64,000 nucleotides of DNA, taken from the NCBI GenBank assembly GCA_043798985.1, contig JAZDOE010000003.1, forward strand, positions 7,917 through 71,916, given 5' to 3'. The position numbers were made by a program, and so were the translations under genes. Shown here one piece after another: positions 5,598-58,344 of the stretch (positions within the stretch are counted from its first letter, which is position 1; each line of letters begins with the position of its first letter). Under the pieces are notes generated by a model that saw only the letters and a program-made list of their open reading frames with translations, was not told where the DNA came from and did no database searches. This stretch comes from Candidatus Falkowbacteria bacterium. GTDB taxonomy: Bacteria; Patescibacteriota; Patescibacteriia; UBA11705; JACRDX01.

Positions 5598-5608
5598 TTA
5601 TTATTTAT

Positions 5609-6595: not shown

Positions 6596-6615
6596 AAAAG
6601 TTCTATAATCACCAA

Positions 6616-6687
6616 AGCCGCCTCTCGGACTTGAACCGAGGACCCACGGTTTACGATACCGTTGCTCTACCACTGAGCTAAGGCGGC
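6616..6687 (-). tRNA. tRNA-Thr (anticodon CGU)
   Basis: Reverse complement GCCGCCTTAGCTCAGTGGTAGAGCAACGGTATCGTAAACCGTGGGTCCTCGGTTCAAGTCCGAGAGGCGGCT folds as a cloverleaf; anticodon loop ATCGTAA. Confidence 0.8.
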
Positions 6688-6736
6688 GCGAGCAATTACA
6701 GAACAGGATTATCATATAAAAAATTACGCAAAGAAT

Positions 6737-6840
6737 CAAGGGTACACCACCACACCAATTACGGGTGAAAATAGGTGGATGGATAGACAAGCATTGCCGC
6801 GGAGCGTATTGTGAAATGCCGCACTCGTAATTGGTGTGGT
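6737..6840 (+). promoter_or_regulatory. long-stem structured 5' leader sequestering the RBS of the RlpA-like gene
   Basis: 17-19 bp perfect stem caccaccacaccaattacg...cgtaattggtgtggtgg ending 8 nt before the ATG at 6849; the 3' arm contains the GGTGG Shine-Dalgarno. Confidence 0.35.
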
Positions 6841-7598: not shown

Positions 7599-8275
7599 TT
7601 CGTTTCCGCAATGTGACGAAGCATTATGATCCGAACGTTTACGCGTTGAGGGATTTTAGTTTGCATATAAAACCGCAGGATTTTGTGAGTATCGTCGGAA
7701 AGAGTGGCGCTGGCAAGACAACTTTGATTAAATTGCTGACAGCCGAGGAGCGGCCAACCAAAGGAAAAATTATTGTGGGCGGCTGGGATATTACTGATAT
7801 CAATCACCGCGAAATTCCATTTTTGCGGCGACAAATTGGCGTTATTTTTCAGAATTTCAGGCTTTTGCCAAATCGCACGGCATTTGAGAATATCGCGTTT
7901 GCTCTGCAGGTTTGCGGCGCTGCGCCGCAGAAGGTCGCGAAAATTGTTCCGCAAATTTTAAAAATCGTTGGACTTGGTCATAAACAAAATTTTTATCCAC
8001 ACCAACTTTCAGGCGGTGAGCAACAGCGCGTTGGTATAGCGCGCGCGTTAATACATCGCCCGAAAATTTTGTTGGCAGACGAGCCGACCGGCAATCTGGA
8101 TGCTATCAATGAGCAGGAAATTATTAATTTGTTGAAAAAAATAAATGAACTCGGAACAACTGTAATTTTGGTGACGCATAATAAAGGAATTGTTAATTCT
8201 TTACGCAAACGAGTAATTACAATGGATTCTGGCGAATTGATCAATGATCAGCATCATGGGAAATACATCATATAA
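7595..8275 (+). CDS. ftsE: cell division ATP-binding protein FtsE
   Basis: ABC ATPase: Walker A 'GKSGAGKTT', signature 'LSGGEQQRV', Walker B 'ILLADEPT'; followed by ftsX. Confidence 0.9.
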
Positions 8276-12839: not shown

Positions 12840-13040
12840 ATGAAAGAGGGCGCGCAGAAGAAACCGAGAAGTCCTGTTGTCAATCCACCTGCGGCAGGTG
12901 GTAGTGGAGGGTATGGTGAGCCGCCGGGAATGTGGGGTGAATTGCGGCTTGAGCAGAGGCTTCATCTGACGCCGCAAGTGCGCAAAAAGGTCGATCCTGC
13001 GAAGGTCAGGAGCAAGACCTTTTTGCCGCAGAAGCGGTAG
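12840..13040 (+). CDS. small GC-rich hypothetical protein (Gly/Pro-rich, basic)
   Basis: AAGGAGG RBS 7 nt upstream; high GC relative to flanks; stop lies inside a 20-bp-stem hairpin. Confidence 0.35.
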   Translation: MKEGAQKKPRSPVVNPPAAGGSGGYGEPPGMWGELRLEQRLHLTPQVRKKVDPAKVRSKTFLPQKR

Positions 13041-13084
13041 AGACGAGATACCCGCCTGCCGTCGGGCAGGTATCTCGTCTCTAT
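13037..13084. terminator. perfect ~20-bp-stem palindrome of the GTAGAGAC...GTCTCTAC family
   Basis: gtagagacgagatacccgcctgccgtcgggcaggtatctcgtctctat. Confidence 0.6.
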
Positions 13085-24781: not shown

Positions 24782-25762
24782 TTACGCGCCAGCGCCTGCT
24801 TCCGGCGCTGGCGTTTCGGTTGCGTCCGGTATCTTTACCAGCGCAACGAATTCTCTGAATGTTTGTGACTCTAACACCTGCTCTTCGACGCATGTCTCGA
24901 ACGCCATCTGAATCGTTGTCTTTCCGTTGTTACTGGCTACGAGCATCTGCGCGCGTTGCAAACACTCGGCGTACATTCTGACGGCTTGCAATATCTGTGA
25001 CTTTTTGGGCCATTTTTTGCAACCGACAGCAATGTCCATAACGACGCGGTAAACAAAGTCTCCGAAAAAGCGTTCGTCGGCACATTTGTTGCGCAGTTCT
25101 TTCTCTCTTTCGCGTGCGGCCTTGAGCTCTTGCTCGTTTGTGTTGAGTTGACTGAAAATAGGGAAATCATCCGCAGTAGCGGAGTTGATCAGTCGGAGCG
25201 CTGATGGAATTTCAACTCGCACACGTGGGGACGCTGCCCCGAGTGTTTTGATTACCCCGCTTCCAAATCCCAGCTCAATCATCCACGTTGCATAGTTGCC
25301 AGTACATTTCGTAAAGTATATGCGAGTGGGAATCCAGTTTTTTTCATTTTTCGGTAGGATCTTGGGCTTGCGGAACTTGCTCGTGGAAATCCAGAGAATT
25401 GCGCCTGGAATTTCGTGGTCCGGCTTGATCGCAGAATTCCAGTAGGGCTTGTCTTCCTCGTCTCTAAACGGCTTGTCAGGATGCGAGTGAAACTGATCGT
25501 CTTTGTCAGCGAAAAAGTAGAATCCTTGTCCGATGACCGAATGCCGGATGAACTTGCACAGGATCGTCCCCGCAATGAGCAATAAGACTAATGTGAGCAG
25601 ACCCGTCAGCAGCATTGGCAGTCCTGTCGTGAAAAGAAACAGGAGGGCAGCGAAAGCGCCAAGAAAGATGAGTCCAATTGCTTCGGCGACAGACCACCAA
25701 CTTTGAGGAAAAACTTTCCAGTACTCTTCGCATGCCGCACATTTCTTCATCTCTTCAACCAT
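24782..25762 (-). CDS. GC-rich hypothetical membrane protein (two N-terminal TM helices, cytoplasmic domain of unknown function)
   Basis: AAAGGAG RBS before MVEEMKK; GC-rich relative to backbone; no recognisable domain. Confidence 0.4.
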   Translation of the reverse strand: MVEEMKKCAACEEYWKVFPQSWWSVAEAIGLIFLGAFAALLFLFTTGLPMLLTGLLTLVLLLIAGTILCKFIRHSVIGQGFYFFADKDDQFHSHPDKPFRDEEDKPYWNSAIKPDHEIPGAILWISTSKFRKPKILPKNEKNWIPTRIYFTKCTGNYATWMIELGFGSGVIKTLGAASPRVRVEIPSALRLINSATADDFPIFSQLNTNEQELKAAREREKELRNKCADERFFGDFVYRVVMDIAVGCKKWPKKSQILQAVRMYAECLQRAQMLVASNNGKTTIQMAFETCVEEQVLESQTFREFVALVKIPDATETPAPEAGAGA

Positions 25763-25922
25763 GACCGACTCCTTTCGCAACAGGCCCGTTTGTCCCATTG
25801 CTCAAGTGCGTTGGTTAGCCTTTTCCAAGACCCTGTGCCTTGAAAATACCTAACCGCAGCGTTGTTAATGAACAGGACAACTTTATCATTTTTTTAAAAA
25901 GAAGTCAAATTGGATGGGATGT

Positions 25923-31545: not shown

Positions 31546-32217
31546 ATGAACGAGGAAACCATGAACAAGGCGTTGCGTCAGGTTCGTAGGATTGTTGCGC
31601 GGGAGACGGTGGCAAAGTTCGCGGGTGTTCTCGTGAAGGTTCCGGCGCAGGGCGGACTGCAGTTCATTGAGAAGAGTTTGACCGTTCCGGAGTACTACAA
31701 CTCCGCGATGAGCTGCGCTGTTGGAACAACTGGAGCGGAACACATCAACAGGATGTTCTTCGGACTCATGCCGAGCGAGGACTGCGGTCGCGAACGGCTT
31801 TTCGACATGATCGTGCAGAAGTGGACGCTGGAAGACGGTGAGTGGTACATCCATTTGCTGTTCACCAAGTCCGACCGCAAGATCGCGAAGCACACGTTGT
31901 CATTCCCGCCCAAGTTCAGGGCAGACGCGACAGACATTCAGCTCTCGCACAACGGACTTAGCTTCGTTCGGGTACTGGACGCGGAGACGTTCGTCTCGAC
32001 GTGCGGCGAGTGCGGCAAGCGGATCTACTCCAGCCACGCGCCGAATCCGAAGTTCGCGCGGAACGCGGCCGAGGCGAAGGCTACGGGCAAGGAGCGCTAC
32101 AAGTGCCCGGACTGCTTGCCGAGAGAGCTGCGGGTGCCTGCGCCGCCGAAGACTCGCTTCGAGCGGGATCAGGAGGAACTGCGGCAGGCGCAGTTCAGAG
32201 GAATGCGGCGCGGTTAG
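31546..32217 (+). CDS. GC-rich hypothetical protein with C-terminal C4 zinc ribbon (CGECG...CPDC); foreign-looking cassette
   Basis: TTGACT-17-TATAAT promoter at ~31446-31480, AAGGAGG RBS, terminator at 32227; GC far above backbone. Confidence 0.5.
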   Translation: MNEETMNKALRQVRRIVARETVAKFAGVLVKVPAQGGLQFIEKSLTVPEYYNSAMSCAVGTTGAEHINRMFFGLMPSEDCGRERLFDMIVQKWTLEDGEWYIHLLFTKSDRKIAKHTLSFPPKFRADATDIQLSHNGLSFVRVLDAETFVSTCGECGKRIYSSHAPNPKFARNAAEAKATGKERYKCPDCLPRELRVPAPPKTRFERDQEELRQAQFRGMRRG

Positions 32218-35153: not shown

Positions 35154-35894
35154 ATGTCTGATCAGCAAGGAAATGTCTTGGTTTATACAGTGCTCGCGGT
35201 CGCGGCAATCTTGAGTACTATTTTGATTGTGTCAAATTTGATGATTGGCGAAATTCGGCAAGCTGGAAATTTTGACAACATGATTAAAGCAACGTACGCG
35301 GCTGAAAGCGGGGCAGAATGGGGAATTTTTAATTTGCGCAAAAATAATATTATGATTGAGAGCGATTGCGACATGCCAGACGTTGATTGTTATGCTGGAG
35401 TAGATGAAACTGGCGTGAAAAAATTGCAATCTGATTTGCCGCAAAACCAGACATTGCAAATTGATTTGTATAATCCGATAAAATTGAACAAGGCTTCTGG
35501 CGTTGAGTCAATGAAAATTGGTTGGTTGGGCGCTGGCTGGGTTGAAGTGACATTGGTTGAATGGCAGGCCGGCAGCCAGGTTGTTTGGAATGACAATGCA
35601 ATGCAAAAATTTTTGTTTAACGCGCCGGCCGTTTTAAATGTTTTTAATAAAAGTAAAAATTATATTGTCCGATTAAAATCTTTAAACGCGCCATTGGCCG
35701 CGTTGTCCGTTGAAATTTTTTCTGGTGACAACGCGGCGGGCGCAGCCCTGCCGTTCCCTCAATTTGTGCGTGTGACTGCCGAGGGAACGGCCAATGGCGC
35801 GTCGCAAATTATCAATGTTGATTTGCCGAAAAAATCCCCGCTCATGGGTTTATTTGATTACGCGTTGTTTAGCGAGGAGGATATTATAAAGTAG
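35154..35894 (+). CDS. pilus-associated hypothetical protein (PilX-like N-terminal helix)
   Basis: Hydrophobic N-terminus 'VLVYTVLAVAAILSTILIV'; follows the pilins. Confidence 0.35.
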   Translation: MSDQQGNVLVYTVLAVAAILSTILIVSNLMIGEIRQAGNFDNMIKATYAAESGAEWGIFNLRKNNIMIESDCDMPDVDCYAGVDETGVKKLQSDLPQNQTLQIDLYNPIKLNKASGVESMKIGWLGAGWVEVTLVEWQAGSQVVWNDNAMQKFLFNAPAVLNVFNKSKNYIVRLKSLNAPLAALSVEIFSGDNAAGAALPFPQFVRVTAEGTANGASQIINVDLPKKSPLMGLFDYALFSEEDIIK

Positions 35895-35928
35895 CTTGTA
35901 GCTGGTAGCTTGTAGCAGGGTAGGTTTT

Positions 35929-38350
<2,422 letters not shown>

Positions 38351-38465
38351 AAGCTTGAATATAAAAGAAAAAACACCGCCTAAGGACGAGCCAGAAGAGG
38401 TGCTTTTTCGTGTGGATTACATTTATAGTATAGCAAGTCAGTAGAATAAGTCAATATTTATCCAC

Positions 38466-38870
38466 ATGGCGAATATTATGACAAAAGATGAAGTGATTAT
38501 TCAAAAGTACAAAAGCGAAAATCCATGGGGAATGAGCGTTTGCGTGGATTTAAAAGAATGTAATTTCGCGACAATGACAAACGCGGAAAAAATAAAGCAG
38601 TTTGTCATTGAAATTTGTGATTTGATAAAAGTGACAAAATTTGGGGAGCCGGTAATTGTGAATTTTGGTGAAAATGCTCGCGTTTTTGGTTTTTCAATGA
38701 CGCAATTGATTGAAACATCTTTGGTGTCAGGACATTTCGCGAATGAAAGCCGCGCGATTTATTTGGATATTTTCAGTTGCAAGGAATATTCGCCGTACGC
38801 GGCAGCTGAATTTTGCAAAAAGTTTTTTGAGGCAAAATCAATGGTAATAAAAATCAATTTTAGATATTAA
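38466..38870 (+). CDS. speH: S-adenosylmethionine decarboxylase proenzyme-like (SpeH class, pyruvoyl-dependent)
   Basis: 'FSMTQLIETSLVSGHF...YLDIFSCK' resembles the E-S self-cleavage region of class 1 AdoMetDC. Confidence 0.5.
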   Translation: MANIMTKDEVIIQKYKSENPWGMSVCVDLKECNFATMTNAEKIKQFVIEICDLIKVTKFGEPVIVNFGENARVFGFSMTQLIETSLVSGHFANESRAIYLDIFSCKEYSPYAAAEFCKKFFEAKSMVIKINFRY

Positions 38871-38873
38871 TAT

Positions 38874-38901
38874 GTAGAGACGAGATATATCTCGTCTCTA
38901 C
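38874..38901. repeat. 26-bp perfect palindrome gtagagacgagatatatctcgtctctac (identical copy at 39743-39770)
   Basis: Exact duplicate flanking the 39064-39735 cassette; same GTAGAGAC...GTCTCTAC family as 13037, 47773 and 58317. Confidence 0.7.
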
Positions 38902-38984
38902 CGTATATATAAAACATTTTTGTTTTGCCGCAAAATTGAGGGTTGTGGATATTCATGCCCCTCAATTTTATTTTTCTAATTTTA

Positions 38985-39063
38985 TTGACAGAATATTTTC
39001 AAAATAGTAAAGTGAATTGTTCAGAAGTTGCTTGACAATTTGGCTGACAAATGGAGGTGGCGC
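38985..39063 (+). promoter_or_regulatory. cassette leader/promoter, copy 1 (TTGACA...aaatagtaaagtgaattgttcag...cttgacaattt...tggaggtg)
   Basis: ~70% identical to the leader at 39822-39897 upstream of trpS, including both TTGACA boxes and the GGAGGTG RBS. Confidence 0.55.
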
Positions 39064-39735
39064 ATGAAAAAGAAGGTGGAATGGCCGGTGGATGTGTCGC
39101 CATGGTTTGGCGAAGCGCAGAAGGTTGTTGAAGCGGTTTTGCGCGCAGGCGTGCCGATAGATAGCGCGATTCTGGATGACTGGAATGCTGGCACAGATCA
39201 AAACGGAGTAAGGATCAAGGGACCGAGAATTATTTGGGGCTTGGAAGCTTGTCGCATGTCAAGATGCAGTGGGTGCAAGTTGTTTTGCGCTGTTGGTGCA
39301 GACATGCGCAAGACGATGATTCAAAATGATAATGCGCTCCGCCTTCGTCGAACATTGTGCCTCGCGAAGAAAAAACATTTGTCGTTTTTGCCTGTGACAT
39401 GCTGGCAAAAGTACCTGAACTGCAAGACCATTGAGCAATACAACGCCGCGTTCGTGGCGTTTGTCATGGAGCGATGTGACACTGAAGAAAAGATGCATGC
39501 AGAGCTTGCATGGATTCTCGGATTCCGTTTGCTGTATCTGAATGAAGAAGGAATTGGATGGGATTGTGCTACGCTCTTGTCAAAAGAGCAGGAAATGAAG
39601 CGCGAAATCATTGGGCGCGTCATGATGGAACTTGTTTGTCAGGGAGAATCAGCGCGACTCCCTTGGTTGTTCACATACAACTGCCAAAACAAAGATTTTT
39701 GGAAAGCGCTCGCAGATTTGAGTCCGCTCCGCTGA
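39064..39735 (+). CDS. GC-rich Cys-rich hypothetical protein (cassette gene 1)
   Basis: GGAGGTG RBS; 224 aa with 'CRMSRCSGCKLFCAVG' and 11 Cys; no recognisable family; bounded by identical palindromes. Confidence 0.45.
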   Translation: MKKKVEWPVDVSPWFGEAQKVVEAVLRAGVPIDSAILDDWNAGTDQNGVRIKGPRIIWGLEACRMSRCSGCKLFCAVGADMRKTMIQNDNALRLRRTLCLAKKKHLSFLPVTCWQKYLNCKTIEQYNAAFVAFVMERCDTEEKMHAELAWILGFRLLYLNEEGIGWDCATLLSKEQEMKREIIGRVMMELVCQGESARLPWLFTYNCQNKDFWKALADLSPLR

Positions 39736-39742
39736 TCGTGCG

Positions 39743-39770
39743 ATAGAGACGAGATATATCTCGTCTCTAC
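39743..39770. repeat. second identical palindrome atagagacgagatatatctcgtctctac, followed by hairpin cctcgctaaaatttagcgggg (39776-39800)
   Basis: Exact copy of 38874-38901. Confidence 0.7.
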
Positions 39771-39821
39771 AAATATCCCTCGCTAAAATTTAGCGGGGCA
39801 TTTTTTGTTAATTCATATTTG

Positions 39822-39897
39822 ACAAGGGATTTTTTAAATAGTAAGGTGAAGTGTTCAGGGGGGCCTTGACAATTTAATGCAAAAGTGGAGGTGAATT
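39822..39897 (+). promoter_or_regulatory. cassette leader/promoter, copy 2, upstream of trpS
   Basis: tttgacaagggattttttaaatagtaaggtgaagtgttcaggggggccttgacaatttaatgcaaaagtggaggtgaattATG. Confidence 0.55.
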
Positions 39898-40923
39898 ATG
39901 GAACAGAGCGCACAGAAGGCAGTTGTGTTGTCCGGTATCCGGGCAACAGGCAAGATGCACCTTGGAAACTACTTGGGAGCCATTCAGCATTTCGCGAGAC
40001 TTTCGCATGATCCGACGAAAAAGTGTTTCTATTTCATCGCGAATTTGCACACATTGACAACATGGACAAAGCCAGATGATCTTCGGAAGTATCTGGCAGG
40101 CATTGTGCTGGATTTTGTCGCGTGCGGCGTTGATCCGCAGACCGCGACGATTTACGCGCAGTCAAGCGTGCCAGAACTTGGCGAGCTTTGCTGGCTGTTG
40201 AACTGTTTGACTCCGGTTGGAGATTTGCTGGGAATGGGGCATTACAAGGACAAGCAGGAAGCAATGAAAGCGACTGGCGAAATGGTCAGTTCTGGATTGT
40301 TGATCTATCCTGTGCTGATGGCCGCTGACATTCTTGGTCCAAAGGCGAATTTGGTGCCAGTTGGGCAGGATCAGCACGCGCATGTGGAATTGGCGCGCGA
40401 TATCGCGCGCAGATTCAATCGGCTGTATTGCGAAGGATTCTTTCCGATTCCAGATTTGCTGGAAGGGCCGGGTCTTCGCGTGCCCGGGCTTGGCGCGTCT
40501 GGCAAAATGGGCAAGAGCGATGACCAGAGCGGAGTTATCAACTTGGACGATGCTCCGGATGTCGTCACACGCAAATTTTTGGTGGCAGTCACTGACACTG
40601 CGAGACAGCGTCGCAAGGATCCGGGAAATCCGGAGAATTGCAACATTTTCACGTTCCATCATTTGATCAGCACGCCCGACGAAATCGTGTGGGCGCAGAA
40701 TGGCTGTATGAACGCTGGTATCGGTTGTCACGATTGCAAGCTGGTCGTGGCTGGACATGTAAATGATTTGCTCGCTCCGATCCAGCAGAAACGCAAGGAA
40801 CTGGAGCAATTGGGAGAATCGTTTGTGTGGGATTTGCTGGCAGACGGAGGCGCTTTTGCGCGCAATGTCGTTGGCAAAACCGTTGAGATAGTGAAAGAGA
40901 AAATGGGCGTTCCTGCCTATTAG
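39898..40923 (+). CDS. trpS: tryptophanyl-tRNA synthetase (class I aaRS, TrpS-like; GC-rich cassette gene 2)
   Basis: 'GKMHLGNYLGAI' HIGH-region variant typical of TrpS, 'KMGKSD' KMSKS variant, 341 aa. Confidence 0.8.
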   Translation: MEQSAQKAVVLSGIRATGKMHLGNYLGAIQHFARLSHDPTKKCFYFIANLHTLTTWTKPDDLRKYLAGIVLDFVACGVDPQTATIYAQSSVPELGELCWLLNCLTPVGDLLGMGHYKDKQEAMKATGEMVSSGLLIYPVLMAADILGPKANLVPVGQDQHAHVELARDIARRFNRLYCEGFFPIPDLLEGPGLRVPGLGASGKMGKSDDQSGVINLDDAPDVVTRKFLVAVTDTARQRRKDPGNPENCNIFTFHHLISTPDEIVWAQNGCMNAGIGCHDCKLVVAGHVNDLLAPIQQKRKELEQLGESFVWDLLADGGAFARNVVGKTVEIVKEKMGVPAY

Positions 40924-40956
40924 ATTAACTGACAAGCGGAACAATGGAGGTGTGTC

Positions 40957-42417
40957 ATGAAAAGAGGCGTGGATGATGGATGGCGATGGCCCAAGGCAGG
41001 GTTTGGCAGCGATGAGCTGAAGAAAGTGCTTGAGGAAATTGATAGCATCGGTTCGCTTTACGAACGGGAAAAGCCCCCGATGTGCTATCCGGGTACGAAC
41101 TTGGAATACCTTGCGTTTCATGAAGTGTATAGAGTTGTCGGCAGGTTGCTTGCGAAGCAGATTAATCAGATTGGATGTCACACGCAGGGCAAGTTGAGCG
41201 AGGGCGGTTTTAAGCGGGCGCAGGAGATGGAAAAAGAGGTTATCGGTTGGATTGCTTCTGTCCTTGGCGGAATGCCTGATACGGTTGACGGGTACTTCTG
41301 CGGAGGCGGGACTGAAGCGAACATTCAGGGATTGTGGATTGGTCGCGAATGGGTGCGCAAGGCACATCCGATTTCCAGAGAAGAGCTTGAACTTGGTATC
41401 AAGCCTGGCATTGTCGTGTTTACGACGCCATTGCTTCACTATTCGTTGGTCAAGGCAGTTGAATTGCTTGGCATTGGCCAGCATACGCGCAACAGAGATG
41501 TTGGAACGCAGGAATTCATGTTTGACCCGAGCGGAAGCGGACTTTGCTTTGTTGAAATGGACGACAGAGGACAGATGTCGATGCCCGCGTTGAAAGATGC
41601 GTTTGAGGAGAAGTTTTTGCATGGATACCGACGTTTCATCTTCGCGCCTACGGTCGGCACTTGCTTGATGGGATCCATTGATCCTGTCCCGGAAATCGCA
41701 AGATTCATCGCTGATCGTGAGCGAGATACGGACGCTGGTTTGTACTTGCACATTGACGCGAGCTTCGCGGCATATACGGTGCCGTTCTTGAATCCAGACT
41801 TCAGGTTTGGATTTGACGTTCTGGCAGACCAGCCTGAGCGTTTGAAAGGAATGTCCATGACGGTTGACGCGGACAAAATGGGTGGTCTGCCGTATCCGTC
41901 TGGCGTTTTCCTGTGTAGGAAGGGGCTGATGGATTTTGTGAATCGCCACGCAGACTACGTCAATGGACATCGGGACGATACGGTCTCTGGGTCGCGGTCT
42001 GCGCTTGCGCCGGTCATGGCGTGGTACTTGTATCAAAGGTTCGGCTATGACGGTCACAAGGAATACGTGGCAAACTGCATCAGGCGCAGAGATTACTTGG
42101 TGCAGCTTGTCAAAGTCCAGTTGCCGTGGGTCAAGGTTCTGCCGTGCTCGCCGTTGGTGAATTTCGCGCCCATGGAGATCCCGATTGATCCTGTGAAGGG
42201 AGACATTCCGGAGCAAGTGTTGGGCGGTGAGTTGCTGAAGGATTATGAGTTGCGTTCCGGCAAACTGCCGTTGCGAGCTGATAATCCAAATGGTGAGCAC
42301 AGCACTGTTTATAAGATCTGCGTCATGCCGCATCATTCGCGGGAGCAGTTGGAGCAGTTCGTGAGGGATATTGCCGAGGCGCGCAGGGCAGAGATTGCAA
42401 GGACTCATGTGGTGTAG
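40957..42417 (+). CDS. group II PLP-dependent amino-acid decarboxylase (MfnA/tyrosine-decarboxylase-like)
   Basis: 'GGTEANIQGLW', 'HIDASFAAY', PLP-lysine region 'SMTVDADKMGGLPYPSGVFLCRKG' (D in place of the usual H before the Lys). Confidence 0.75.
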   Translation: MKRGVDDGWRWPKAGFGSDELKKVLEEIDSIGSLYEREKPPMCYPGTNLEYLAFHEVYRVVGRLLAKQINQIGCHTQGKLSEGGFKRAQEMEKEVIGWIASVLGGMPDTVDGYFCGGGTEANIQGLWIGREWVRKAHPISREELELGIKPGIVVFTTPLLHYSLVKAVELLGIGQHTRNRDVGTQEFMFDPSGSGLCFVEMDDRGQMSMPALKDAFEEKFLHGYRRFIFAPTVGTCLMGSIDPVPEIARFIADRERDTDAGLYLHIDASFAAYTVPFLNPDFRFGFDVLADQPERLKGMSMTVDADKMGGLPYPSGVFLCRKGLMDFVNRHADYVNGHRDDTVSGSRSALAPVMAWYLYQRFGYDGHKEYVANCIRRRDYLVQLVKVQLPWVKVLPCSPLVNFAPMEIPIDPVKGDIPEQVLGGELLKDYELRSGKLPLRADNPNGEHSTVYKICVMPHHSREQLEQFVRDIAEARRAEIARTHVV

Positions 42418-42536
42418 CGCTTGAGTATTCCGTCGTTGTTAAAAACAGCGGCGGATTTTTTGTTTTACAATAATTATCAAGCGTGAGATGATAAAAAAAG
42501 CAAGAGTAGCTGGTAGCTTGTAGATGTAAGAGAAAT

Positions 42537-43566
42537 ATGAAGAAACAAAGTTTCAAATTGGATTTGAACGAGAATGTTGCGGATATTTATTATCCGAGCT
42601 TGTTGAAGTTGCAAAAAAGATTGAGCGATGTTCAATTTTACGCGAGAGCAAATGATGAAATCACAGTAAAACGGGTGATAGCAAAATACAATAAAATTTC
42701 AGCTGAAAATATCGTTTTGACAAACGGTTCGTATCACGCGCTTGAGTTGCTGTCCGGTTTTTTGCTTGACAAAAACGATGAGATGATAATTTTGGCGCCG
42801 ACATTTCCGTTTTACGATAAGTTTGAAAAATATAAAAAGTTTAAAATAAAAAAAGTTTTTTATCGCGCCGCGACGATTGCAATTGATGAAATAATTGGGG
42901 CGATTACTAACAAAACCAAAATTGTTTATATTGCGAATCCGAATAATCCAATCGGTTCAAGTTTGTCGCGGCGCGAGTTGTTAAAACTTATTAAAATTTG
43001 CGAGAAGAAGAAAATTTTCGCATTGATAGATGAAGCATATTGCGAATTTGGAGGAGAATCAGTTGTAGATTTGGTTGATAAATATAAATATTTAATTGTT
43101 TTACGGACATTTTCAAAATTTTTAGGACTTGCGGGCATTAAAGTTGGATATATTGTTGTGAATTCGGCCCGCGCACAAGAATTTGAATTTGTGCGCGGGC
43201 CGTCGTTTGCGATTAGCAAATTTGGATTGATTGTTGCTGAAACAATTTTGCGCAACCCTAAATTAATTAAAAAAATTCAAAAAAGAAATAGATGCGACTA
43301 GAAAAGTTTTTTTTGCGTATTGTTTGAAAAAGAAAATTTTCTTTTATCCTTCTGTAACAAACTTTGTTGTTATTAAGTTGGAACGCATGCAGAAGTTTGT
43401 TGACTTCATGAACAAAAACGGAATCTTAGTTAAGTCGCTGGATAATTATATTGATGATAAAAACAAGGTGTTGAAAAATTGCGTTCGCGTGACGTTGGCG
43501 CCAATGAGCAAAATGAAATATTTTTTTGCGGCGTTTGACAGATTTTTGGCAGATCAAGACATTTGA
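42537..43566 (+). pseudogene. class-II aminotransferase (HisC-like), split into 42537-43301 and 43324-43566
   Basis: N-terminal part 'NPNNPIGS...FSKFLGLAGIKVGY' (PLP Lys region); the C-terminal remainder is in a different frame after stop codons; low-GC backbone composition. Confidence 0.5.
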
Positions 43567-43657
43567 CAGCGGGGTCGCTATTTGCTAACTTGTGAAGTTA
43601 GTGTGTATTGGACGTGGCGTCTTTCGTATAACGAACATTGACAACGTGGAGGCTGCC

Positions 43658-44617
43658 ATGAAACAGAATGAAGAAACGACTGATGAAAGAAAAAGCGCTG
43701 TTAAGGCTTATGCGTTGGCAGTTCTTGGAGTAGTATGCGCCGCGCTTGGGCCTGTTCTTTTTCAGCGACTATCAACGGACTTTCCCGCTATCTGGGTGAT
43801 ATTCTGGTTTCTCTTGTCAGGCGGAGGTTTTTCTTTGATCGCCGGCGCGATAATTCTGCGTTTGAAGGGGCAGCGCGGTTTGGGTACGCTCAATGGCAAG
43901 ATAATCGCCATGCTAGCGCTTGTTGGCTTGACATGGACGCTCTACTTTTACCTCTATGTTTTTGCTATTAGTATTAAGGGTGCAACAGAGGCAAGTGTTT
44001 TGACGCGCGTCGGGCCGTTGTTTAATGTGATTTTCGCGGCCGCGATTCTGAAAGAAAAAGTCAAAAGTTGGGCGCGCGTGTTCTTAGCAGCTATAATTTG
44101 TGTTGTTGGTCTATCAGTATCAACTGGCGAGTTCGTTCAAAGCTTGACCGCTGGAGTTTCGCTATGCCTTGTCGTGGGGGTAATGGCAGGCATGTTTGGA
44201 GCATTGAACTACGCGCTATTAACACGGGAAGAGCGGCGCAATCAGGTCGATCCATTGATTGCCGTTGGTATATCAATGTGTTTTGGCGCAGCGATTTTGT
44301 TGATGTGGCTGTTTGTTGGAGAGCACAATAGCAACATTGTCTTTCCAGTAAATAGAGAGCAATGGCTGAGCATTGGTGTCCTTGGCATAGTGACGGTAGC
44401 CATGTGGCGGTATTGTTTCGTCCTTGCCGCAACGGCAAGCAAAATGAGCAAAATCGGCATGGTTGAATATCTGATTCCGATCTTTGTCGCGATCTATGCT
44501 TGGCTGATTAGTAACCAAACAGCAGATTATGCCAGCATGGGGGGCGGGCTCGCGATCATTATCATAGGGCTACTTATAGCAGATGCCAGCGTTGAAAAGA
44601 AAAAAGAATCGAGCTGA
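43658..44617 (+). CDS. EamA/DMT-superfamily transporter (10 TM), GC-rich
   Basis: Two EamA-like halves; GGAGGC RBS before MKQNEETTD. Confidence 0.65.
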   Translation: MKQNEETTDERKSAVKAYALAVLGVVCAALGPVLFQRLSTDFPAIWVIFWFLLSGGGFSLIAGAIILRLKGQRGLGTLNGKIIAMLALVGLTWTLYFYLYVFAISIKGATEASVLTRVGPLFNVIFAAAILKEKVKSWARVFLAAIICVVGLSVSTGEFVQSLTAGVSLCLVVGVMAGMFGALNYALLTREERRNQVDPLIAVGISMCFGAAILLMWLFVGEHNSNIVFPVNREQWLSIGVLGIVTVAMWRYCFVLAATASKMSKIGMVEYLIPIFVAIYAWLISNQTADYASMGGGLAIIIIGLLIADASVEKKKESS

Positions 44618-44948
44618 GAGGCAGGATAGTTCTGCTGTCAGGAGGATGTAAACAACATCTTCCTTTTTAATTCTTGACATAGATAAAATATTTGCTATAC
44701 TAACAATATATGAACAGTATTGATTGCAGAATGGTTTTGAATTATTGGTGGCACAACAAGACTTCGTCGTAAAGTTCGGATTTATTTTTTGCTCATTTGA
44801 GACTTCCGAATTTTACGAGGAAGTCTTTTTAAATTTACGTTGACGCTTGCATGTTTTGTAAATTTGTTATAAAGTATGCGGTCGCTAGCGGAAATTGTAC
44901 AGGGTGTCATTTTCGCTATGAACATTGATATTGATAAGGGGGCGTGTC

Positions 44949-45536
44949 ATGAAGATTGAGCGTGGAGTTCCGAGTCAGGCAAAAGCAGTTGAACTGGTTT
45001 CTCGCGGGTTTGTCCAACCCGTTTCACAGGCATTGATCGCCGATACGAGAGACCATTTGCACGCAGGTGATTTTGTGTATTCTGCAACGGCTGATGACCG
45101 GTTGGTAGGTTTTGCGGTTTTCGATGAGCTGCCCAGCAAGCTACTGTTCGTTGCGGGGATCATGATTGATCCTGCCCATCAAGGCGAAAAGGTTGGACGC
45201 CAGATGATTCTGAAAGCAAAGGATCAGGTCAGTGCCGAGTTTCTCGGGCTTCGCACGCAGTCGCCGAGAATGTGGTCTGCTGGGCGCAGCATTTGCGCGG
45301 AGTGGTATCCGAATTTTGACAATGGGGTTTTGCGGTTCAGGCTTCAGGCGCAGGCGGAACTTATCCGCGCGCGACTTGGTCCGAAGTACGAGTACCCTGT
45401 TGTTGAAAGCTGCTACGGCGGCGCGTTGTATGGCGAAAAGCCGACACATCGCGAGCCTAGTGTTCAGTCGTGGTGGGACAGCATCTGCAATTTCGCGCGC
45501 GGAGATGCGGTGTTGTGTATTGGTAAGTTTCGCTGA
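44949..45536 (+). CDS. GNAT-family N-acetyltransferase, GC-rich
   Basis: 'LVGFAVFDELPSKLLFVAGIMIDPAHQGEKVGRQMI' acetyl-CoA binding motif; TTGACA-17-TATACT promoter at ~44675-44705. Confidence 0.6.
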   Translation: MKIERGVPSQAKAVELVSRGFVQPVSQALIADTRDHLHAGDFVYSATADDRLVGFAVFDELPSKLLFVAGIMIDPAHQGEKVGRQMILKAKDQVSAEFLGLRTQSPRMWSAGRSICAEWYPNFDNGVLRFRLQAQAELIRARLGPKYEYPVVESCYGGALYGEKPTHREPSVQSWWDSICNFARGDAVLCIGKFR

Positions 45537-45595
45537 TACAATGGGGGTAGGTGCAAAGCATCTGCCCTCGATTTTTTAAAAATAGTTTTTAAAAT

Positions 45596-46744
45596 ATGAT
45601 TAATAAACAACGTTTGATTAAATTGTTTTGTGAATTAGTGAAAATAAAAAGTCCAACCGGTAGCGAAGAACAAATCAGCCGACGAGTTATTTTTTACTTG
45701 AAAAAGTTCGGCGCAAAAGTTCAGCGAGATAAATTCGGCAATATTGTTGCGAAGTTGGTTGGAACTGGCAAGCCGTTAATTCTGTGCGCACATTTGGATA
45801 CTGTCGCTGTGGGCGCTGGAAAAAATATTAGGCCGATTATTAAAAAAGGAAAAATTTTTAGCGATGGAAAAACAATTCTCGGCGCTGATAATAAAGATTC
45901 GATCGCGGCAATTTTAGAGATGTTGAATGTTATTAAAGAAAATAAAATAAAACATTGCCCCGCCGCAGCGAGGCACCGCGCGCTGGAAATTGTTTTCACG
46001 CGAGAAGAAGAGGCGATTTCTCGCGGCGCGCGGTCATTGGATTTAAGTTTGTTGAAAGGCAAAGAATGTATAATTTCCGATCATTGCAATGAATATGGAA
46101 CAATTGTGACATCTGCTCCGGGCTGCTATAAATTTGAAATCAAAATTTTTGGCAAACGATGTCATGTTAAGGAGCCGGAAAAAGGAATTAACGCTATAAA
46201 AATCGCGGCAGAAATAATCAGAAAAATTCCGCTCGGCAAAGTTGATAATTTTACAAACGCGAATATTGGTTATCAAATCGCTGGATTAGATGGCGTTGTA
46301 AATAAGGCAGGCGCGGTCATTGACCAGTTGTTTAATGAGAATCGCAACACTGTTCCTGATTTGGCGATTCTGTTGGGTGAAGTGCGCGGAGTAAGGTCGG
46401 AAAATTTGCAACGGGCTTTGTTGAAAATTCAAAAAATAGCGGAAAAAATCACTGCGCGATTTTGCGGTCGTATTGAGTTTTGCGCTGACAAATTAACAGA
46501 CGGCTATTGTTTGAAACAAAATAACAAATTGATTTTGCAAATTAAAAATACTTTTAAGAAGCAGGGCATTGAACCGCAGTTTTGCCAAGCGCTCGGCGGA
46601 TCTGACGCGAATATCTTGAATAATCGCGGAATACGATCGGTTGTTATTGCTTCAGCGCACAGAAACAATCACCAAACTTATGAATATTTGATAATCAAAG
46701 ACTTGGAGCGGCTCGCAGAATTTTATTTGTTATTTGTTCAATGA
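45596..46744 (+). CDS. M20-family metallopeptidase/deacylase (ArgE/DapE/PepT-like)
   Basis: 'ILCAHLDTV' and 'GADNKDSIAA' metal-binding motifs. Confidence 0.65.
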   Translation: MINKQRLIKLFCELVKIKSPTGSEEQISRRVIFYLKKFGAKVQRDKFGNIVAKLVGTGKPLILCAHLDTVAVGAGKNIRPIIKKGKIFSDGKTILGADNKDSIAAILEMLNVIKENKIKHCPAAARHRALEIVFTREEEAISRGARSLDLSLLKGKECIISDHCNEYGTIVTSAPGCYKFEIKIFGKRCHVKEPEKGINAIKIAAEIIRKIPLGKVDNFTNANIGYQIAGLDGVVNKAGAVIDQLFNENRNTVPDLAILLGEVRGVRSENLQRALLKIQKIAEKITARFCGRIEFCADKLTDGYCLKQNNKLILQIKNTFKKQGIEPQFCQALGGSDANILNNRGIRSVVIASAHRNNHQTYEYLIIKDLERLAEFYLLFVQ

Positions 46745-46781
46745 AAAAAAAGAGGTCAGTTTCGTTGAAACTGACCGGAAG

Positions 46782-46854
46782 TGCCGGCGACAGGGTTTGA
46801 ACCTGCAACCAACGGTTTTGGAGACCGTCGCTCCGCCATTTGAGCTACGCCGGC
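46782..46854 (-). tRNA. tRNA-Trp (anticodon CCA)
   Basis: Reverse complement GCCGGCGTAGCTCAAATGGCGGAGCGACGGTCTCCAAAACCGTTGGTTGCAGGTTCAAACCCTGTCGCCGGCA; anticodon loop CTCCAAA. Confidence 0.8.
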
Positions 46855-47104
46855 ACTTCTTCGCCAAAAGATTGCCACAGGGGGTTGGCGTTCCATTCGG
46901 CGAAGAAGCCACAAAGGAGACAGCCATGAACAGTTTGAATTTAGCATAGTTTTAAAATTAAATCAAGAGCAATGGCTGGTTTTTGTGAAAAAACGCGCAA
47001 TTTTGCGCGTTTTTTGGTTTAGGATTTTGTTTATTTTTGGAAGTATGCTAATTTATTTATATGTACCTTAGGTTAAAAAATAACTAAGAAAAGCGGAGGC
47101 GAGC

Positions 47105-47776
47105 ATGGACGCGAAAAAACTGTTTGCCAGGCTTGATGCTGATACATGGTTCTTTGACTTGGACGGAACATTGTATTCAGCAATGAATAAAATCAGCCAA
47201 GTATTTAAGGCAAAATACTTGGAATTGGTGATGGCGGTTTATGGTCTTGATTTGGCAAAAGCCGAGCAAAAACTTATTGAACTTCAGTTCAAACACAAGA
47301 CGCGTTTGATGCGTCCGGCGCTTGTCAGAGACGGCGTGCCAATAGGGATTATTTCAAGCTTTACGGCCTTTAGAATTGACGCGAAAAAGCTTGGAATCGC
47401 GTTGCCACGAAAGCGGCGAGAGAATCTGTTGGCTGCCGTGGGAGAGCGCATTGTGCTGACCAATAGCCCTGAATCTTACGCTTGGCAAATGTTAAGCGCG
47501 CTTGGCGTGGGAGATCTGTTTGCGCAGGTGATTGGCGCGGAAAGCATGGACAATGGCCGTGTTTTCAAACCAGAATGCGGAGCATATAACGCGCTCATCG
47601 TTGCGCTGGGAAATGGACGACGAGTCGTGTTGGTTGATGATGAGGAACCAAATCTGGACGCGGCCGTTGAAATCAGCCACGCGATTGGCAATGTCGCGGT
47701 AAGCAATCTCGTGACAATTCTTGTTGGAAATAAGCCGAAATCATCAACGCATTTGAACATCGCACATTTGGATTAA
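47105..47776 (+). CDS. HAD-superfamily hydrolase, GC-rich
   Basis: Motif I 'FFDLDGTLY', motif IV 'VLVDDEEPN'; ends at palindrome 47773-47803. Confidence 0.55.
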   Translation: MDAKKLFARLDADTWFFDLDGTLYSAMNKISQVFKAKYLELVMAVYGLDLAKAEQKLIELQFKHKTRLMRPALVRDGVPIGIISSFTAFRIDAKKLGIALPRKRRENLLAAVGERIVLTNSPESYAWQMLSALGVGDLFAQVIGAESMDNGRVFKPECGAYNALIVALGNGRRVVLVDDEEPNLDAAVEISHAIGNVAVSNLVTILVGNKPKSSTHLNIAHLD

Positions 47777-47803
47777 TAGAGACGTATTGCAATGTGTCTC
47801 TAC
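47773..47803. repeat. imperfect palindrome atagagacgtattgcaatgtgtctctacc (GTAGAGAC family)
   Basis: Family member with two spacer mismatches. Confidence 0.5.
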
Positions 47804-47974
47804 CTTTGTGGAGCAGGTTGAATCAACTTTGCTCCATTTTTTTATTTTTCGTGATATAATCGTAATATGGCTACGAATTGTGGCTACGAACCTACGAATC
47901 ATTCGAATATTACGAATCTACTAATTAATTAGTAATTGGTAGTATTCGCAGTGATTTGTAATTGGTAGCAGTAT

Positions 47975-48292
47975 ATGAATTTTGATAAAGAACAAATTGA
48001 ACATTTGGCAAAATTGGCGCGGCTTGAAATTACGACAGCCGAAAAAGAAAAGTACGCAGAGCAGATTGCTTCAATTATTGATTATTTTGGAAAGTTGAAC
48101 GCAATTGACATGAAAAATGTTGAGCCATTGGATTTTATTACAGAATTGAAAAATGTTTGGCGCGAAGACGAGGCCGCGCAATTTTTTGATAAAGAAAAAA
48201 CGCTGGCCGCTTGCCCGCGGACGCGGGACGCGGCCAGGGAAGCGCCGGAGTTGAAAGACGACCAAATTGTTGTGCCTAATATATGGATTTGA
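47975..48292 (+). CDS. gatC: Asp/Glu-tRNA amidotransferase subunit C
   Basis: 'IEHLAKLARLEITTAEKEKYAEQIASIIDYFGKLNAIDMKNVEP'; overlaps the gatA start. Confidence 0.8.
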   Translation: MNFDKEQIEHLAKLARLEITTAEKEKYAEQIASIIDYFGKLNAIDMKNVEPLDFITELKNVWREDEAAQFFDKEKTLAACPRTRDAAREAPELKDDQIVVPNIWI

Positions 48293-51330: not shown

Positions 51331-51963
51331 TCACGTTTTCCTACACGTGGCGTAGACAAAGTTTTTCCGAAGTTCGTGGAATATCGGCGAACCTGCAAGT
51401 AATTCCCATGTGCCGCTACAAAAGAACATTTCTTTGCCATCGCCACCTAAGAAATCAAAGTGGCCAGCGCTCATTTTGTGCGGATAATGCGTTGCCAGCG
51501 CTGTCAATTCAACTGGCGTAAGAACGCGTCGCCCGTGTTCGGCAAGTTCGGTCTTGATGTCAGTGACCAGTTTGCCAACGTCTTCTCCTGATCTACTGAT
51601 GTCTGTGTCAAATATCAAGTACGGCTGTTGTGCTTCTTCGGTAAACTTGGACAGATGGCCATCCGCGATAGCGCCACGTCCATAGTGCGCAGTGTTAGAA
51701 TTGGGGCGATTCCTGGTTTGATGATCAGGCGCTGGGGCCCAAATCTTGGAAAGCTGGTGAGCTAATGGAACCATTGTTTGCGGAATAATGACAAGTACTC
51801 GCACTGATGTGTCATGGTCGTACATCCAACGCGCTGCATCTACGAGCAGTGCGTTGAATGTTTCGCGAAAAGCAAGCTCGCTTTTATTCGCGACCTGATG
51901 ATAGCCAAGCTTGATCAACTGCTCAATCTGGCGCTCGACGATTCCAACGAAGTGTCTGGGCAT
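51331..51963 (-). CDS. GC-rich hypothetical protein (210 aa, no recognisable domain)
   Basis: ORF; composition clearly distinct from flanks; terminator immediately 3'. Confidence 0.4.
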   Translation of the reverse strand: MPRHFVGIVERQIEQLIKLGYHQVANKSELAFRETFNALLVDAARWMYDHDTSVRVLVIIPQTMVPLAHQLSKIWAPAPDHQTRNRPNSNTAHYGRGAIADGHLSKFTEEAQQPYLIFDTDISRSGEDVGKLVTDIKTELAEHGRRVLTPVELTALATHYPHKMSAGHFDFLGGDGKEMFFCSGTWELLAGSPIFHELRKNFVYATCRKT

Positions 51964-58316: not shown

Positions 58317-58344
58317 GTAGAGACAATTCATGAATTGTCTCTAC
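58317..58344. repeat. perfect palindrome gtagagacaattcatgaattgtctctac (GTAGAGAC family)
   Basis: 13-bp arms; upstream of rplU. Confidence 0.6.

Follow-up and report, generated by a model that had tools for sequence, protein, structure and literature searches.

The region described here lies in a 64-kb stretch of DNA (the window) from a metagenome-assembled genome of Candidatus Falkowbacteria, a bacterium of the candidate phyla radiation (CPR, or Patescibacteria); of this genome, the analysis covers the window. Three plus-strand genes stand at its centre: a gene for a cysteine-rich (Cys-rich) protein of 223 aa (39064..39735), trpS, which encodes a tryptophan–tRNA ligase (TrpRS) of the Fe-S type (39898..40923), and deC, which encodes a group II pyridoxal phosphate (PLP) decarboxylase-like protein of 486 aa from a CPR-specific clade (40957..42417). 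The Cys-rich protein and the deC product each have a 100% identical counterpart among the NCBI proteins of a Falkowbacteria genome. A tRNA-Trp gene with the anticodon CCA lies downstream on the minus strand (46781..46854) and was the only match above threshold in an Rfam scan of 38300-48000. A preliminary description had read the region as an array of mobile cassettes, each composed of a palindrome, a leader and a gene. Our data point instead to a vertically inherited tryptophan neighbourhood that would include a tryptophan (aromatic amine) decarboxylation module, a reading to which we give a probability of about 55%. The identities that had been proposed for TrpS, the Pyridoxal_deC protein, a split aminotransferase, the EamA, GNAT, M20 and HAD proteins and tRNA-Trp were all confirmed.

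By their sequence signals, the three genes fall into two separate predicted transcription units, promoter–Cys-rich gene–terminator and promoter–trpS–deC–terminator. The promoter and 5' untranslated region (5'UTR) of the Cys-rich gene (leader copy 1) occupy 38985..39063 on the plus strand, and the unit closes with an intrinsic terminator (CCTCGCTAAAATTTAGCGGGG and a T-run) at 39778..39808 (+), which is conserved in L001, a locus from another Falkowbacteria assembly (loci used for comparison are numbered with L). Leader copy 2, at 39819..39897 (+), holds the promoter and 5'UTR of the trpS–deC operon. trpS stops at 40923 and deC starts at 40957. There is no terminator between them and the first one appears at 42429 (42429..42462, +), so the two genes are presumably co-transcribed. 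Directly 5' of the Cys-rich gene is a small gene (38466-38870) that resembles S-adenosylmethionine decarboxylase (AdoMetDC, pyruvoyl decarboxylase family). It scores 33.7 with the SAM decarboxylase equivalog model, below the cutoff of 75.65, and its unit ends in a terminator-like intrinsic hairpin with a T-run at 38932..38975 (+), recognised from the fold and from direct reading. A gene of this family stands directly 5' of the Cys-rich gene in two genomes (38466-38870 in the window and 138-530 in L001).

The leader is duplicated, as had been noticed before. The two copies are 71% identical over 89 nt (38985-39073 and 39819-39907), and these two leaders are the only places in the 64 kb with the extended promoter motif and the CTTGACAAT box. 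Each copy has the -35 hexamer TTGACA, a 17-nt spacer, a -10 hexamer (TAAAGT in copy 1, TAAGGT in copy 2), a 5'UTR of about 44 nt and the Shine–Dalgarno (SD) sequence GGAGGTG; copy 1 carries CTTGACAAT and copy 2 carries CCTTGACAAT. An orthologous leader precedes the Cys-rich gene of L001, and CCTTGACAAT or CATTGACATT lies about 20 nt 3' of the -10 hexamer in the trpS leaders of L002, L008 and L215. The two units carry paralogous promoter and 5'UTR regions, with the CCTTGACAAT box conserved in the trpS leaders of related lineages. The most economical reading of the box is a shared operator or 5'UTR element that would co-regulate the Cys-rich gene with trpS. A fold in which CCUUG pairs with the SD is predicted in the leader, and its z-score is not significant. 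The internal TTGACA of the leader was considered as a second promoter and rejected, as no -10-like hexamer lies at 16-18 nt from it in any lineage. Two weak Rfam matches, SNORA20 and STnc40, were set aside as sub-threshold noise caused by the palindrome. In L001, a third copy of the promoter (TTGACA-N17-TAAATTGAAATGTT, 1953-2000) follows the LMWPc gene, where trpS would be expected; its similarity is lost after about 45 nt, with the end of the contig a further 135 nt on, which suggests an assembly break at the trpS leader.

TrpS scored 263.9 with TIGR00233 (cutoff 176.75) and matched PF00579 with an E value of 7.6e-54, and its HLGN and KMGKS motifs, the HIGH-like and KMSKS signatures, are intact. 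The best match in the PDB is 2g36, the [4Fe-4S] TrpRS of Thermotoga maritima (2e-69), with four cysteines aligned. Residues 248-280 contain C-x21-C-x6-C-x2-C, which is also found in all type-A CPR copies and falls within the published Fe-S motif C-x(21-24)-C-x6-C-x2-C (PMC2954223). Unlike the protein of the window, the T. maritima enzyme has no described linkage to a decarboxylase or a Cys-rich partner. The best 120 database relatives are CPR TrpS proteins with 48-69% identity, the closest having 55-69%, from Falkowbacteria, Parcubacteria, Uhrbacteria, Moranbacteria and other lineages, and they are equally close with deC next door (P0015, 60%) and without it (P0011, 60%). Judged by its score, its motifs and its nearest relatives, the protein appears to be an ordinary CPR TrpRS of the Fe-S type. 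The preliminary description had called it a TrpS paralogue, and had named two signs that would speak against this, a sole trpS in the genome and clustering with CPR orthologues. The clustering was found, which argues against a separate clade, and within the 64 kb examined the idea of a paralogue is not supported. Locus L021 contains a divergent pair of trpS genes, 5590-6618(-) and 6859-7881(+), both above the trpS cutoff; the one with the Fe-S motif adjoins deC and tRNA-Trp, and the motif-less one adjoins a radical SAM/SPASM gene. In L016, the motif-less type is the only one present and stands beside deC.

The product of deC matched PF00282 with 55 bits (cutoff 27). The PLP lysine (K307, in ...DADK...), the aspartate of the HxDA motif (D267, HIDAS) and the stacking histidine (H161) are invariant in the family alignment (A2), and the lysine aligns with the SGHK lysine of serine decarboxylase. 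With the PF00282 domain, the PLP lysine and the pyridine-N aspartate all present, the predicted protein qualifies as a group II PLP decarboxylase. Among solved structures, serine, histidine and tyrosine/aspartate decarboxylases come closest to it, with E values of about 1e-18 over the core only. It shares with MfnA, histidine and serine decarboxylases the PF00282 domain, the PLP lysine, the HxDA aspartate and a GGTEAN loop. It differs from them in having D, not H or S, before the lysine, in scoring far below the equivalog cutoffs, and in a CPR-specific N-terminal extension with the region WRWP...PPxCYPGT, which is unique to the clade. Those relatives that carry a source name in a large protein database are from Patescibacteria. 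An antisense open reading frame (ORF) of 748 aa at 40162-42408 was regarded as a GC-rich shadow of trpS and deC.

A scan for deC with one genome per species returned 10 CPR loci, followed by Bacteroidota and other sequences with 27-31% identity and by archaeal MfnA with 22-26%. trpS was adjacent to deC in 9/10 CPR loci, but in none of the 70 Bacteroidota, archaeal and other loci. The two genes are co-directional in L014 and L017-L021, divergent in L022 and L023, and convergent in L016; L015 has deC without trpS, and L012 has trpS without deC. At least 13 further pairs of TrpS and deC matches lie on contigs of equal size. tRNA-Trp(CCA) is the sole tRNA in the CPR deC loci. It lies directly beside deC in L009, L020, L021, L022, L023 and L218 and near trpS in L008, L016 and L019; its distance from deC is 8-150 nt in six lineages. 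It was present in 12 of the 13 distinct CPR deC loci compared with 1 of 60 non-CPR deC loci, and MfnA and Bacteroidota loci differ from the CPR loci in lacking the linkage to trpS and tRNA-Trp. The sole non-CPR-labelled deC locus with tRNA-Trp (L034 324-1739, tRNA 180 nt after deC) comes from a contig of 3 kb assigned to 'Francisellaceae', and could be a CPR fragment placed in the wrong bin.

Almost every lineage has its own set of genes around this triad (UvrA, trigger factor, radical SAM and others), which indicates that the adjacency of trpS, deC and tRNA-Trp was maintained through extensive rearrangement. It is found in Falkowbacteria, Uhrbacteria, Saccharibacteria, Jorgensenbacteria, Moranbacteria and others. 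Thus, trpS, the CPR-specific deC clade and tRNA-Trp are kept adjacent across many CPR lineages. In the window, tRNA-Trp lies 4.4 kb downstream, in a GNAT–M20–tRNA-Trp(-) block that is common to L008, where an orthologue of the window GNAT (53% identity) adjoins M20–tRNA-Trp–trpS–deC. CPR genomes are tiny and have few conserved non-housekeeping linkages; a triad that is retained across the radiation therefore probably marks something important to the lifestyle of these bacteria. Proteins recurring beside the triad in several CPR lineages are a TrpD-like Glycos_transf_3 protein, BtpA, a PfkB kinase and a HAD hydrolase (L009 3193-5254, L018 11238-12062, L020 4373-5539 and L022 9651-13096); the trpD model gave 148.7 against a cutoff of 199.

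The order of genes upstream of trpS also recurs in related genomes. In the window the genes upstream of the Cys-rich gene are ligA and AdoMetDC. L001 has the 3' end of ligA, AdoMetDC (84% identity), the leader, the Cys-rich gene (60%), the terminator and LMWPc(-). In L002-L004 the order is tRNA-Trp(-) ... Cys-rich gene (58%), LMWPc(-), leader and trpS (70%), and in L214-L216 it is ligA, a membrane protein gene, the Cys-rich gene (43%) and trpS (68%). Three lineages have the Cys-rich gene just 5' of trpS, and in three there is also an upstream ligA. The recurrence of the order ligA–(AdoMetDC)–Cys-rich–trpS in three related lineages points to vertical inheritance.

The Cys-rich protein had been described as belonging to no recognisable family, and it indeed has no match in Pfam or NCBIfam. 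A profile search collected a small, uncharacterised family of 57 representative clusters with lengths of 180-220 aa. The invariant or near-invariant residues in the alignment (A3) include C63, C68, C71, C120 (in LNCKT) and C138, giving the pattern C-x4-C-x2-C ... LNCKT ... C. In one member the protein is joined to a C_GCAxxG_C_C redox domain, and another has a weak Fer4_12 region at its N-terminus. The AlphaFold2 model has a pLDDT of 89.5 and no fold match in the PDB; the family is thus confidently modelled with no match to a solved fold. It is plausible that the protein binds a metal or an Fe-S cluster and is functionally tied to the Fe-S TrpRS. A 225-aa orphan ORF in L012 was examined and is not a homologue.

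The preliminary description had also set genes of 55-60% GC against a backbone of about 38%, which overstates the difference. The measured values are 49.0% for the Cys-rich gene, 52.2% for trpS and 52.6% for deC, against a window mean of 42% and 34-41% in flanking genes. trpS and deC are GC-richer than their flanks in other lineages too, and the junction from AT-rich to GC-rich DNA is also seen in the independent assembly L001 (AdoMetDC 34%, Cys-rich gene 50%). The equal excess in orthologues, together with the L001 junction, argues against the GC excess as a sign of recent horizontal transfer or of an assembly chimera, the latter having been raised as a possible flaw. The three genes have a high GC content at third codon positions.

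The palindromes on either side of the Cys-rich gene are real repeats, and the two are not quite identical. Copy 1 (38874..38901, +; halves GTAGAGACGAGATA and TATCTCGTCTCTAC) begins 3 nt past the AdoMetDC stop codon, and copy 2 (39743..39770, +) begins 7 nt past the Cys-rich stop codon, just 5' of the terminator. The exact shared repeat is 27 nt (38875-38901 = 39744-39770; 2 matches, 0.00 expected). The 28-nt palindrome starts with G in copy 1 (38874) and with A in copy 2 (39743), so the 28-nt string is exact at 38874 only. Nor do they form an isolated pair. A scan of the window for short inverted repeats found three more copies with the same outer stem. The copy at 13037..13084 (+), outside the locus, has the GAGATA inner stem of the copies at 38874 and 39743 and a nested 20-nt hairpin in its loop. 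The copy at 47776..47803 (+; centre GTATTGCAATGTG) overlaps the stop codon of the HAD gene and is followed by a terminator. The copy at 58317..58344 (+; centre AATTCATGAATT), also outside the locus, lies 5' of the rplU promoter. The pattern AGAGAC-N(6-36)-GTCTCT gave 5 matches in the window with 0.01 expected, the copies being 26-48 nt long. All five are intergenic; three begin no more than 10 nt past a stop codon, four precede an intrinsic terminator, and the fifth precedes the rplU promoter. They fold as strong stems of 12-14 bp, with region z-scores of about -3 to -9 (-7.2 for the copy at 38874, -4.8 at 47776 and -9.2 at 13037).

The family signature is GTAGAGAC…GTCTCTAC, and a metagenome scan for GTAGAGAC-N12-GTCTCTAC found it in at least 120 contigs. 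Among the 135 matches listed, 85 centres are fully self-complementary and 33 are so at 5/6 positions, i.e. 118/135 at 5/6 or better, where about 1 in 4096 would have a self-complementary centre by chance. This indicates a large family of hairpins in which the 8-bp base is constant and the upper stem co-varies freely. The flanks of the metagenome copies are not conserved, and partial half-copies are often found beside full ones. A common variant, GTAGAGACGCGATTAATCGCGTCTCTAC, matches only cyanobacterial plasmids (Nostoc, Calothrix, Trichormus, Kovacikia and Halotia). When all ORFs within 3 kb of the metagenome hairpins were clustered into families, an IS200-like Y1 transposase was the joint-largest recurrent neighbour (10 loci), tied with an uncharacterised repeat-rich protein family. 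The transposase scored 30 with Pfam Y1_Tnp (cutoff 23), and its sole NCBIfam match was 'REP-associated tyrosine transposase' (RAYT; E 7e-17, below the cutoff of that model). In these contigs the hairpins flank the Y1 gene and also sit in the linker after its HUH motif. The RAYT-like genes of L097, L099, L112, L114, L138, L140, L145, L151, L160 and L192 carry the GTAGAGAC hairpin in frame in this post-HUH linker. There it is translated as VETxxxxSL, or as RDxxxxVST if another frame is used, so coding sequence can accommodate the repeat.

A defining feature of repetitive extragenic palindromic (REP) elements is reportedly a hairpin headed on its 5' side by the tetranucleotide GT[AG]G, and GTAG or ATAG stands at the 5' head of all copies in the window. 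These copies share with REP elements and REPINs their form as short perfect palindromes (20-40 nt is the usual range) and their extragenic, multi-copy distribution, often between a stop codon and a terminator, and in other genomes the GTAGAGAC-headed family occurs in and around Y1/RAYT genes. They differ in being single hairpins, not inverted doublets, in the lack of a RAYT gene in the window, and in an 8-bp base with a variable upper stem that is common to Nostocales cyanobacteria and to the CPR bacterium studied here. REP elements and RAYTs have been described in general terms (PMC3116915). Given that they are palindromic, extragenic and multi-copy, with a GTAG head, and that the family is associated with RAYT elsewhere, we regard the hairpins of the window as probable dispersed REP-like elements and not as cassette borders, with membership of the REP class incomplete as long as no RAYT accompanies them in the window. 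The small dispersed repeats of Nostocales are said to be 21-27-nt hairpin-forming repeats spread across cyanobacterial genomes. The restriction of GTAGAGACGCGATTAATCGCGTCTCTAC to cyanobacterial plasmids would suit a likeness to them; the host here differs in being a CPR bacterium. Literature searches with the hairpin sequence returned nothing relevant; we know of no description of this hairpin family in a CPR genome, a point for which no dedicated literature search was made. Identical palindromes around a gene can be REP-type repeats, not recombination sites, and a single GTAGAGAC-headed family is common to very distant bacteria.

The pairing of a synthetase with a decarboxylase had been taken earlier as a hint of aromatic-amine metabolism. 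This hint has been strengthened by the conservation of the pair with tRNA-Trp across CPR and by a fusion of deC with a GNAT domain (P0175). The GNAT protein of the window (44925-45536), encoded 2.5 kb downstream of deC, aligns over its full length, C-terminal extension included, to the GNAT domain of P0175 (E 2e-10). The fusion is encoded in locus L218, in the order trpS, chorismate-mutase/methyltransferase, tRNA-Trp and deC–GNAT. Formation of an arylalkylamine and its acetylation likewise involve a decarboxylase and then an N-acetyltransferase. We therefore favour the view that the locus is a tryptophan (aromatic amine) decarboxylation module coupled to charging of tRNA-Trp, as judged by analogy. 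In this module, deC would form the amine of an aromatic amino acid, tryptophan being the likeliest, and the neighbouring GNAT would N-acetylate the product. The EamA carrier is a candidate for moving the substrate or the product of deC. Retention of trpS and tRNA-Trp with deC would couple the capacity for charging tRNA-Trp to the consumption of tryptophan, following the logic proposed for tyrS, and the shared leader would co-regulate the Cys-rich protein, probably a metal- or Fe-S-binding one, with trpS. The hairpins may be selfish REP-type insertions tolerated in 3'UTRs, where stabilisation of transcripts would be incidental, and would have had no part in assembly of the locus. In L218, a CM_2–methyltransferase fusion gene (5624-6778) lies between trpS and tRNA-Trp/deC–GNAT, a further link to aromatic metabolism; a related methyltransferase follows directly after trpS in L012.

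Genes for a decarboxylase and an aminoacyl-tRNA synthetase also lie close together in hdc clusters that contain hisS, and in E. coli, where lysU is near cadBA. In the tyramine cluster tyrS–tdcA–tyrP of enterococci and lactobacilli, the synthetase gene stands beside the decarboxylase gene and is regulated by the amino acid, an arrangement proposed to secure or sense the amino-acid pool during decarboxylation (PMC3315439). The locus in the window resembles this cluster, also given as tyrS–tdcA–tyrP(–nhaC), in having a class I synthetase gene directly beside a group II PLP decarboxylase gene and a dedicated leader 5' of the synthetase gene. The synthetase would be the cognate one if deC acts on tryptophan. 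It differs in several respects: the TrpRS is seemingly the ordinary copy of its lineage and not a cluster-specific paralogue, the cognate tRNA gene is within the neighbourhood, and a GNAT is linked or fused. The antiporter (of TyrP type) and the T-box on the synthetase gene, which belong to loci of the lactic acid bacterial kind, are both lacking here; there is no T-box because the leader is only about 44 nt long. The preliminary description had considered the combination not to be a described system. That is correct insofar as no description of a trpS–decarboxylase linkage in CPR was found in the searchable literature, but loci with a synthetase and a decarboxylase are already known from lactic acid bacteria (PMC3315439), and what seems new here is the version with trpS and tRNA-Trp across CPR.

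Several findings weigh against the favoured reading. The deC protein is below every NCBIfam equivalog cutoff (MfnA 116.8 against 299.4, HDC 112.2 against 305, PanP 56.2 against 606, and GAD 38.8 against 380), it is only weakly similar to the solved group II decarboxylase from a gut bacterium, 4obu (E 6.6e-06), and its family has Asp, not the usual His, before the PLP lysine. A decarboxylase of free amino acids does not demand the tight adjacency of deC and tRNA-Trp. A Pfam scan of the locus found no APC-type amino-acid/amine antiporter such as lactic acid bacteria have, and the EamA gene, 1.2 kb from deC and beyond the AT-rich split aminotransferase, is not conserved as a neighbour in other loci. 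L021 (OY970175.1), a complete CPR chromosome of 898,885 bp, has two trpS genes. As to regulation, the CCTTGACAAT/CATTGACATT box is missing from distant CPR and from the Cys-rich leader of L001, the leader RNA folds no better than shuffled sequences (z -1.1 and -1.5), and the Rfam scan of 38300-48000 (E <= 1) gave no match in the leader, T-box included. As to the hairpins, tblastn detected no RAYT in the 64-kb window (E > 0.4).

Other explanations of the adjacency were considered. It could be a historical gene order in which deC is an MfnA- or PanP-like enzyme that makes beta-alanine, tyramine, ethanolamine or histamine for an unrelated need. The nearest named families (MfnA, histidine decarboxylase and serine decarboxylase), the JGI label of relatives as tyrosine/aspartate decarboxylase, and the existence of some trpS without deC (L012) and one deC without trpS (L015) agree with this. 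However, the adjacency has persisted through changes of orientation and full replacement of the flanks across CPR lineages, and the three partners all relate to one amino acid, while the non-CPR homologues show no such linkage, so that we regard mere history as unlikely. Alternatively, deC might act on tRNA-Trp or on the aminoacylated tRNA, in a tRNA-dependent transformation or a tRNA modification. Such a role would account for the fixation of its gene beside tRNA-Trp and trpS across Patescibacteria, and the distance of 8-150 nt in six lineages and the counts of tRNA-Trp in CPR and control loci fit it. The clade is also divergent from all characterised decarboxylases, with its N-terminal WRWP...PPxCYPGT region and its D-K motif, and PLP enzymes that act on tRNA-bound amino acids exist in SepCysS and SepSecS. 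Chemistry speaks against it, since an esterified alpha-carboxylate cannot undergo decarboxylation. The typical PLP-binding residues of group II are all kept, the best matches are genuine decarboxylases, fusion with GNAT better suits acetylation of an amine, and Pfam detected no tRNA-binding domain in the protein. We consider a tRNA-acting deC improbable, and quite improbable the wider proposal that deC is a partner of TrpRS and tRNA-Trp, not a decarboxylase of free amino acids, performing a tRNA-dependent transformation or a tRNA-Trp-specific modification with the Cys-rich protein as an accessory metal or Fe-S factor of TrpRS.

The remaining alternatives concern the repeats. An integron-like or recombination-built array of mobile GC-rich cassettes, with an acquired trpS paralogue for self-resistance, was suggested by the near-identical palindromes that bracket the Cys-rich gene, by the duplicated leader, by genes GC-richer than their neighbours, and by the presence of three of the five hairpins within a 9-kb neighbourhood. 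This proposal is now largely refuted and has very little probability left. Hairpins also stand 3' of unrelated genes at 13 kb and 58 kb, and there is none between deC and the downstream genes. They had been expected as conserved cassette boundaries, but in relatives with the same gene order and leaders they are missing. In L001 the AdoMetDC stop codon leads directly to the same promoter and the Cys-rich gene directly to the same terminator, copy 2 is missing at the equivalent place in L001 and L002, and the family had 0 members in 97 other loci, including all CPR relatives that were fetched. Integron cassettes are promoterless, but both units here bring a sigma70-like promoter and a terminator of their own. 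TrpS falls among its CPR orthologues, and the GC excess is conserved in other lineages. The likeness to integron cassettes is limited to short palindromes between consecutive same-strand genes. An integron has an adjacent intI with attI and Pc, and variable promoterless cassettes that end in attC. The locus differs in having no integrase, no R''/L''-L'/R' architecture of attC and no common Pc promoter, with a hairpin after the Cys-rich gene and none after deC, and Pfam and NCBIfam scans of the ORFs at 38.4-47.8 kb found no recombinase or integrase. It is also unlikely that the hairpins serve the host in the first place, as functional RNA or DNA elements such as stabilisers of mRNA 3' ends, RNase III sites or protein operators. 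Their uniform intergenic placement on the coding strand, close behind stop codons in three cases and before terminators in four, would suit such a function, as would the compensatory changes in the upper stem and the copy at 47776-47803, in which two stem positions pair only as G-U (G-T in the DNA) on the plus, transcribed strand. Yet orthologous 3'UTRs in relatives have no hairpin, the family in other organisms is tied to Y1/RAYT genes and leaves partial half-copies, and 60/140 metagenome copies, among the matches listed, are inside long open frames. A host function and a selfish REP origin are not mutually exclusive.

If deC makes tryptamine or N-acetyltryptamine, as the tryptophan-neighbourhood reading predicts, the locus may provide a route for energy or pH homeostasis, or a host-directed signal of episymbionts, and the synthetase–decarboxylase logic of lactic acid bacteria would be extended to a new amino acid and a new phylum. 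If deC instead acts on tRNA-Trp, it would represent a new kind of tRNA-linked chemistry.

Downstream of the trpS–deC unit, the window contains a hisC-like aminotransferase gene that is AT-rich (34%) and split into two ORFs (42537-43301 and 43324-43566), probably a pseudogene or a frameshift in the assembly. It is followed on the plus strand by the EamA/DMT transporter gene (43592..44617; Pfam and NCBIfam), the product of which is weakly similar to the aromatic amino-acid exporter YddG, by the gene for the GNAT acetyltransferase identified by Pfam (44925..45536), and by an M20 (PepT-like) peptidase gene (45596..46744; Pfam and NCBIfam). Beyond tRNA-Trp is a gene for a HAD phosphatase similar to pyrimidine 5'-nucleotidase (47105..47776, +), a neighbour that recurs in L008 and L022.

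The compositional mosaic of this genome extends beyond the trpS–deC locus. Further isolated GC-rich ORFs with no Pfam match are located at 31546-32217 (+), which has 60% GC and a GC content of 0.80 at third codon positions (GC3), and at 24782-25798 (-) and 51331-51963 (-), which have about 50% GC. An ORF at 35929-36282, by eye similar to the four-helix-bundle '23S rRNA intervening sequence protein', lies between inverted repeats at 35893-35925 and 36283-36316 (GTAGCTTGTAGCTGGTAGCTTGTAGCAGGGTAGG and CTACAAGCTACCATCCTACCAGCTACAAGC). No GTAGAGAC hairpin is present at the flanks of this S23p gene. A solo copy, GTAGCTGGTAGCTTGTAG, is found at 42503-42520, just 5' of the split aminotransferase, and from their sequences these three sites look like a second small family of mobile or insertion elements. 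Between the HAD terminator and gatC, at 47868-47960, there are degenerate short repeats (ggctacgaa, cctacgaa, ttacgaa and gtaattggtag), which are possibly related to the CTACAAGCTAC repeats around the four-helix-bundle ORF.

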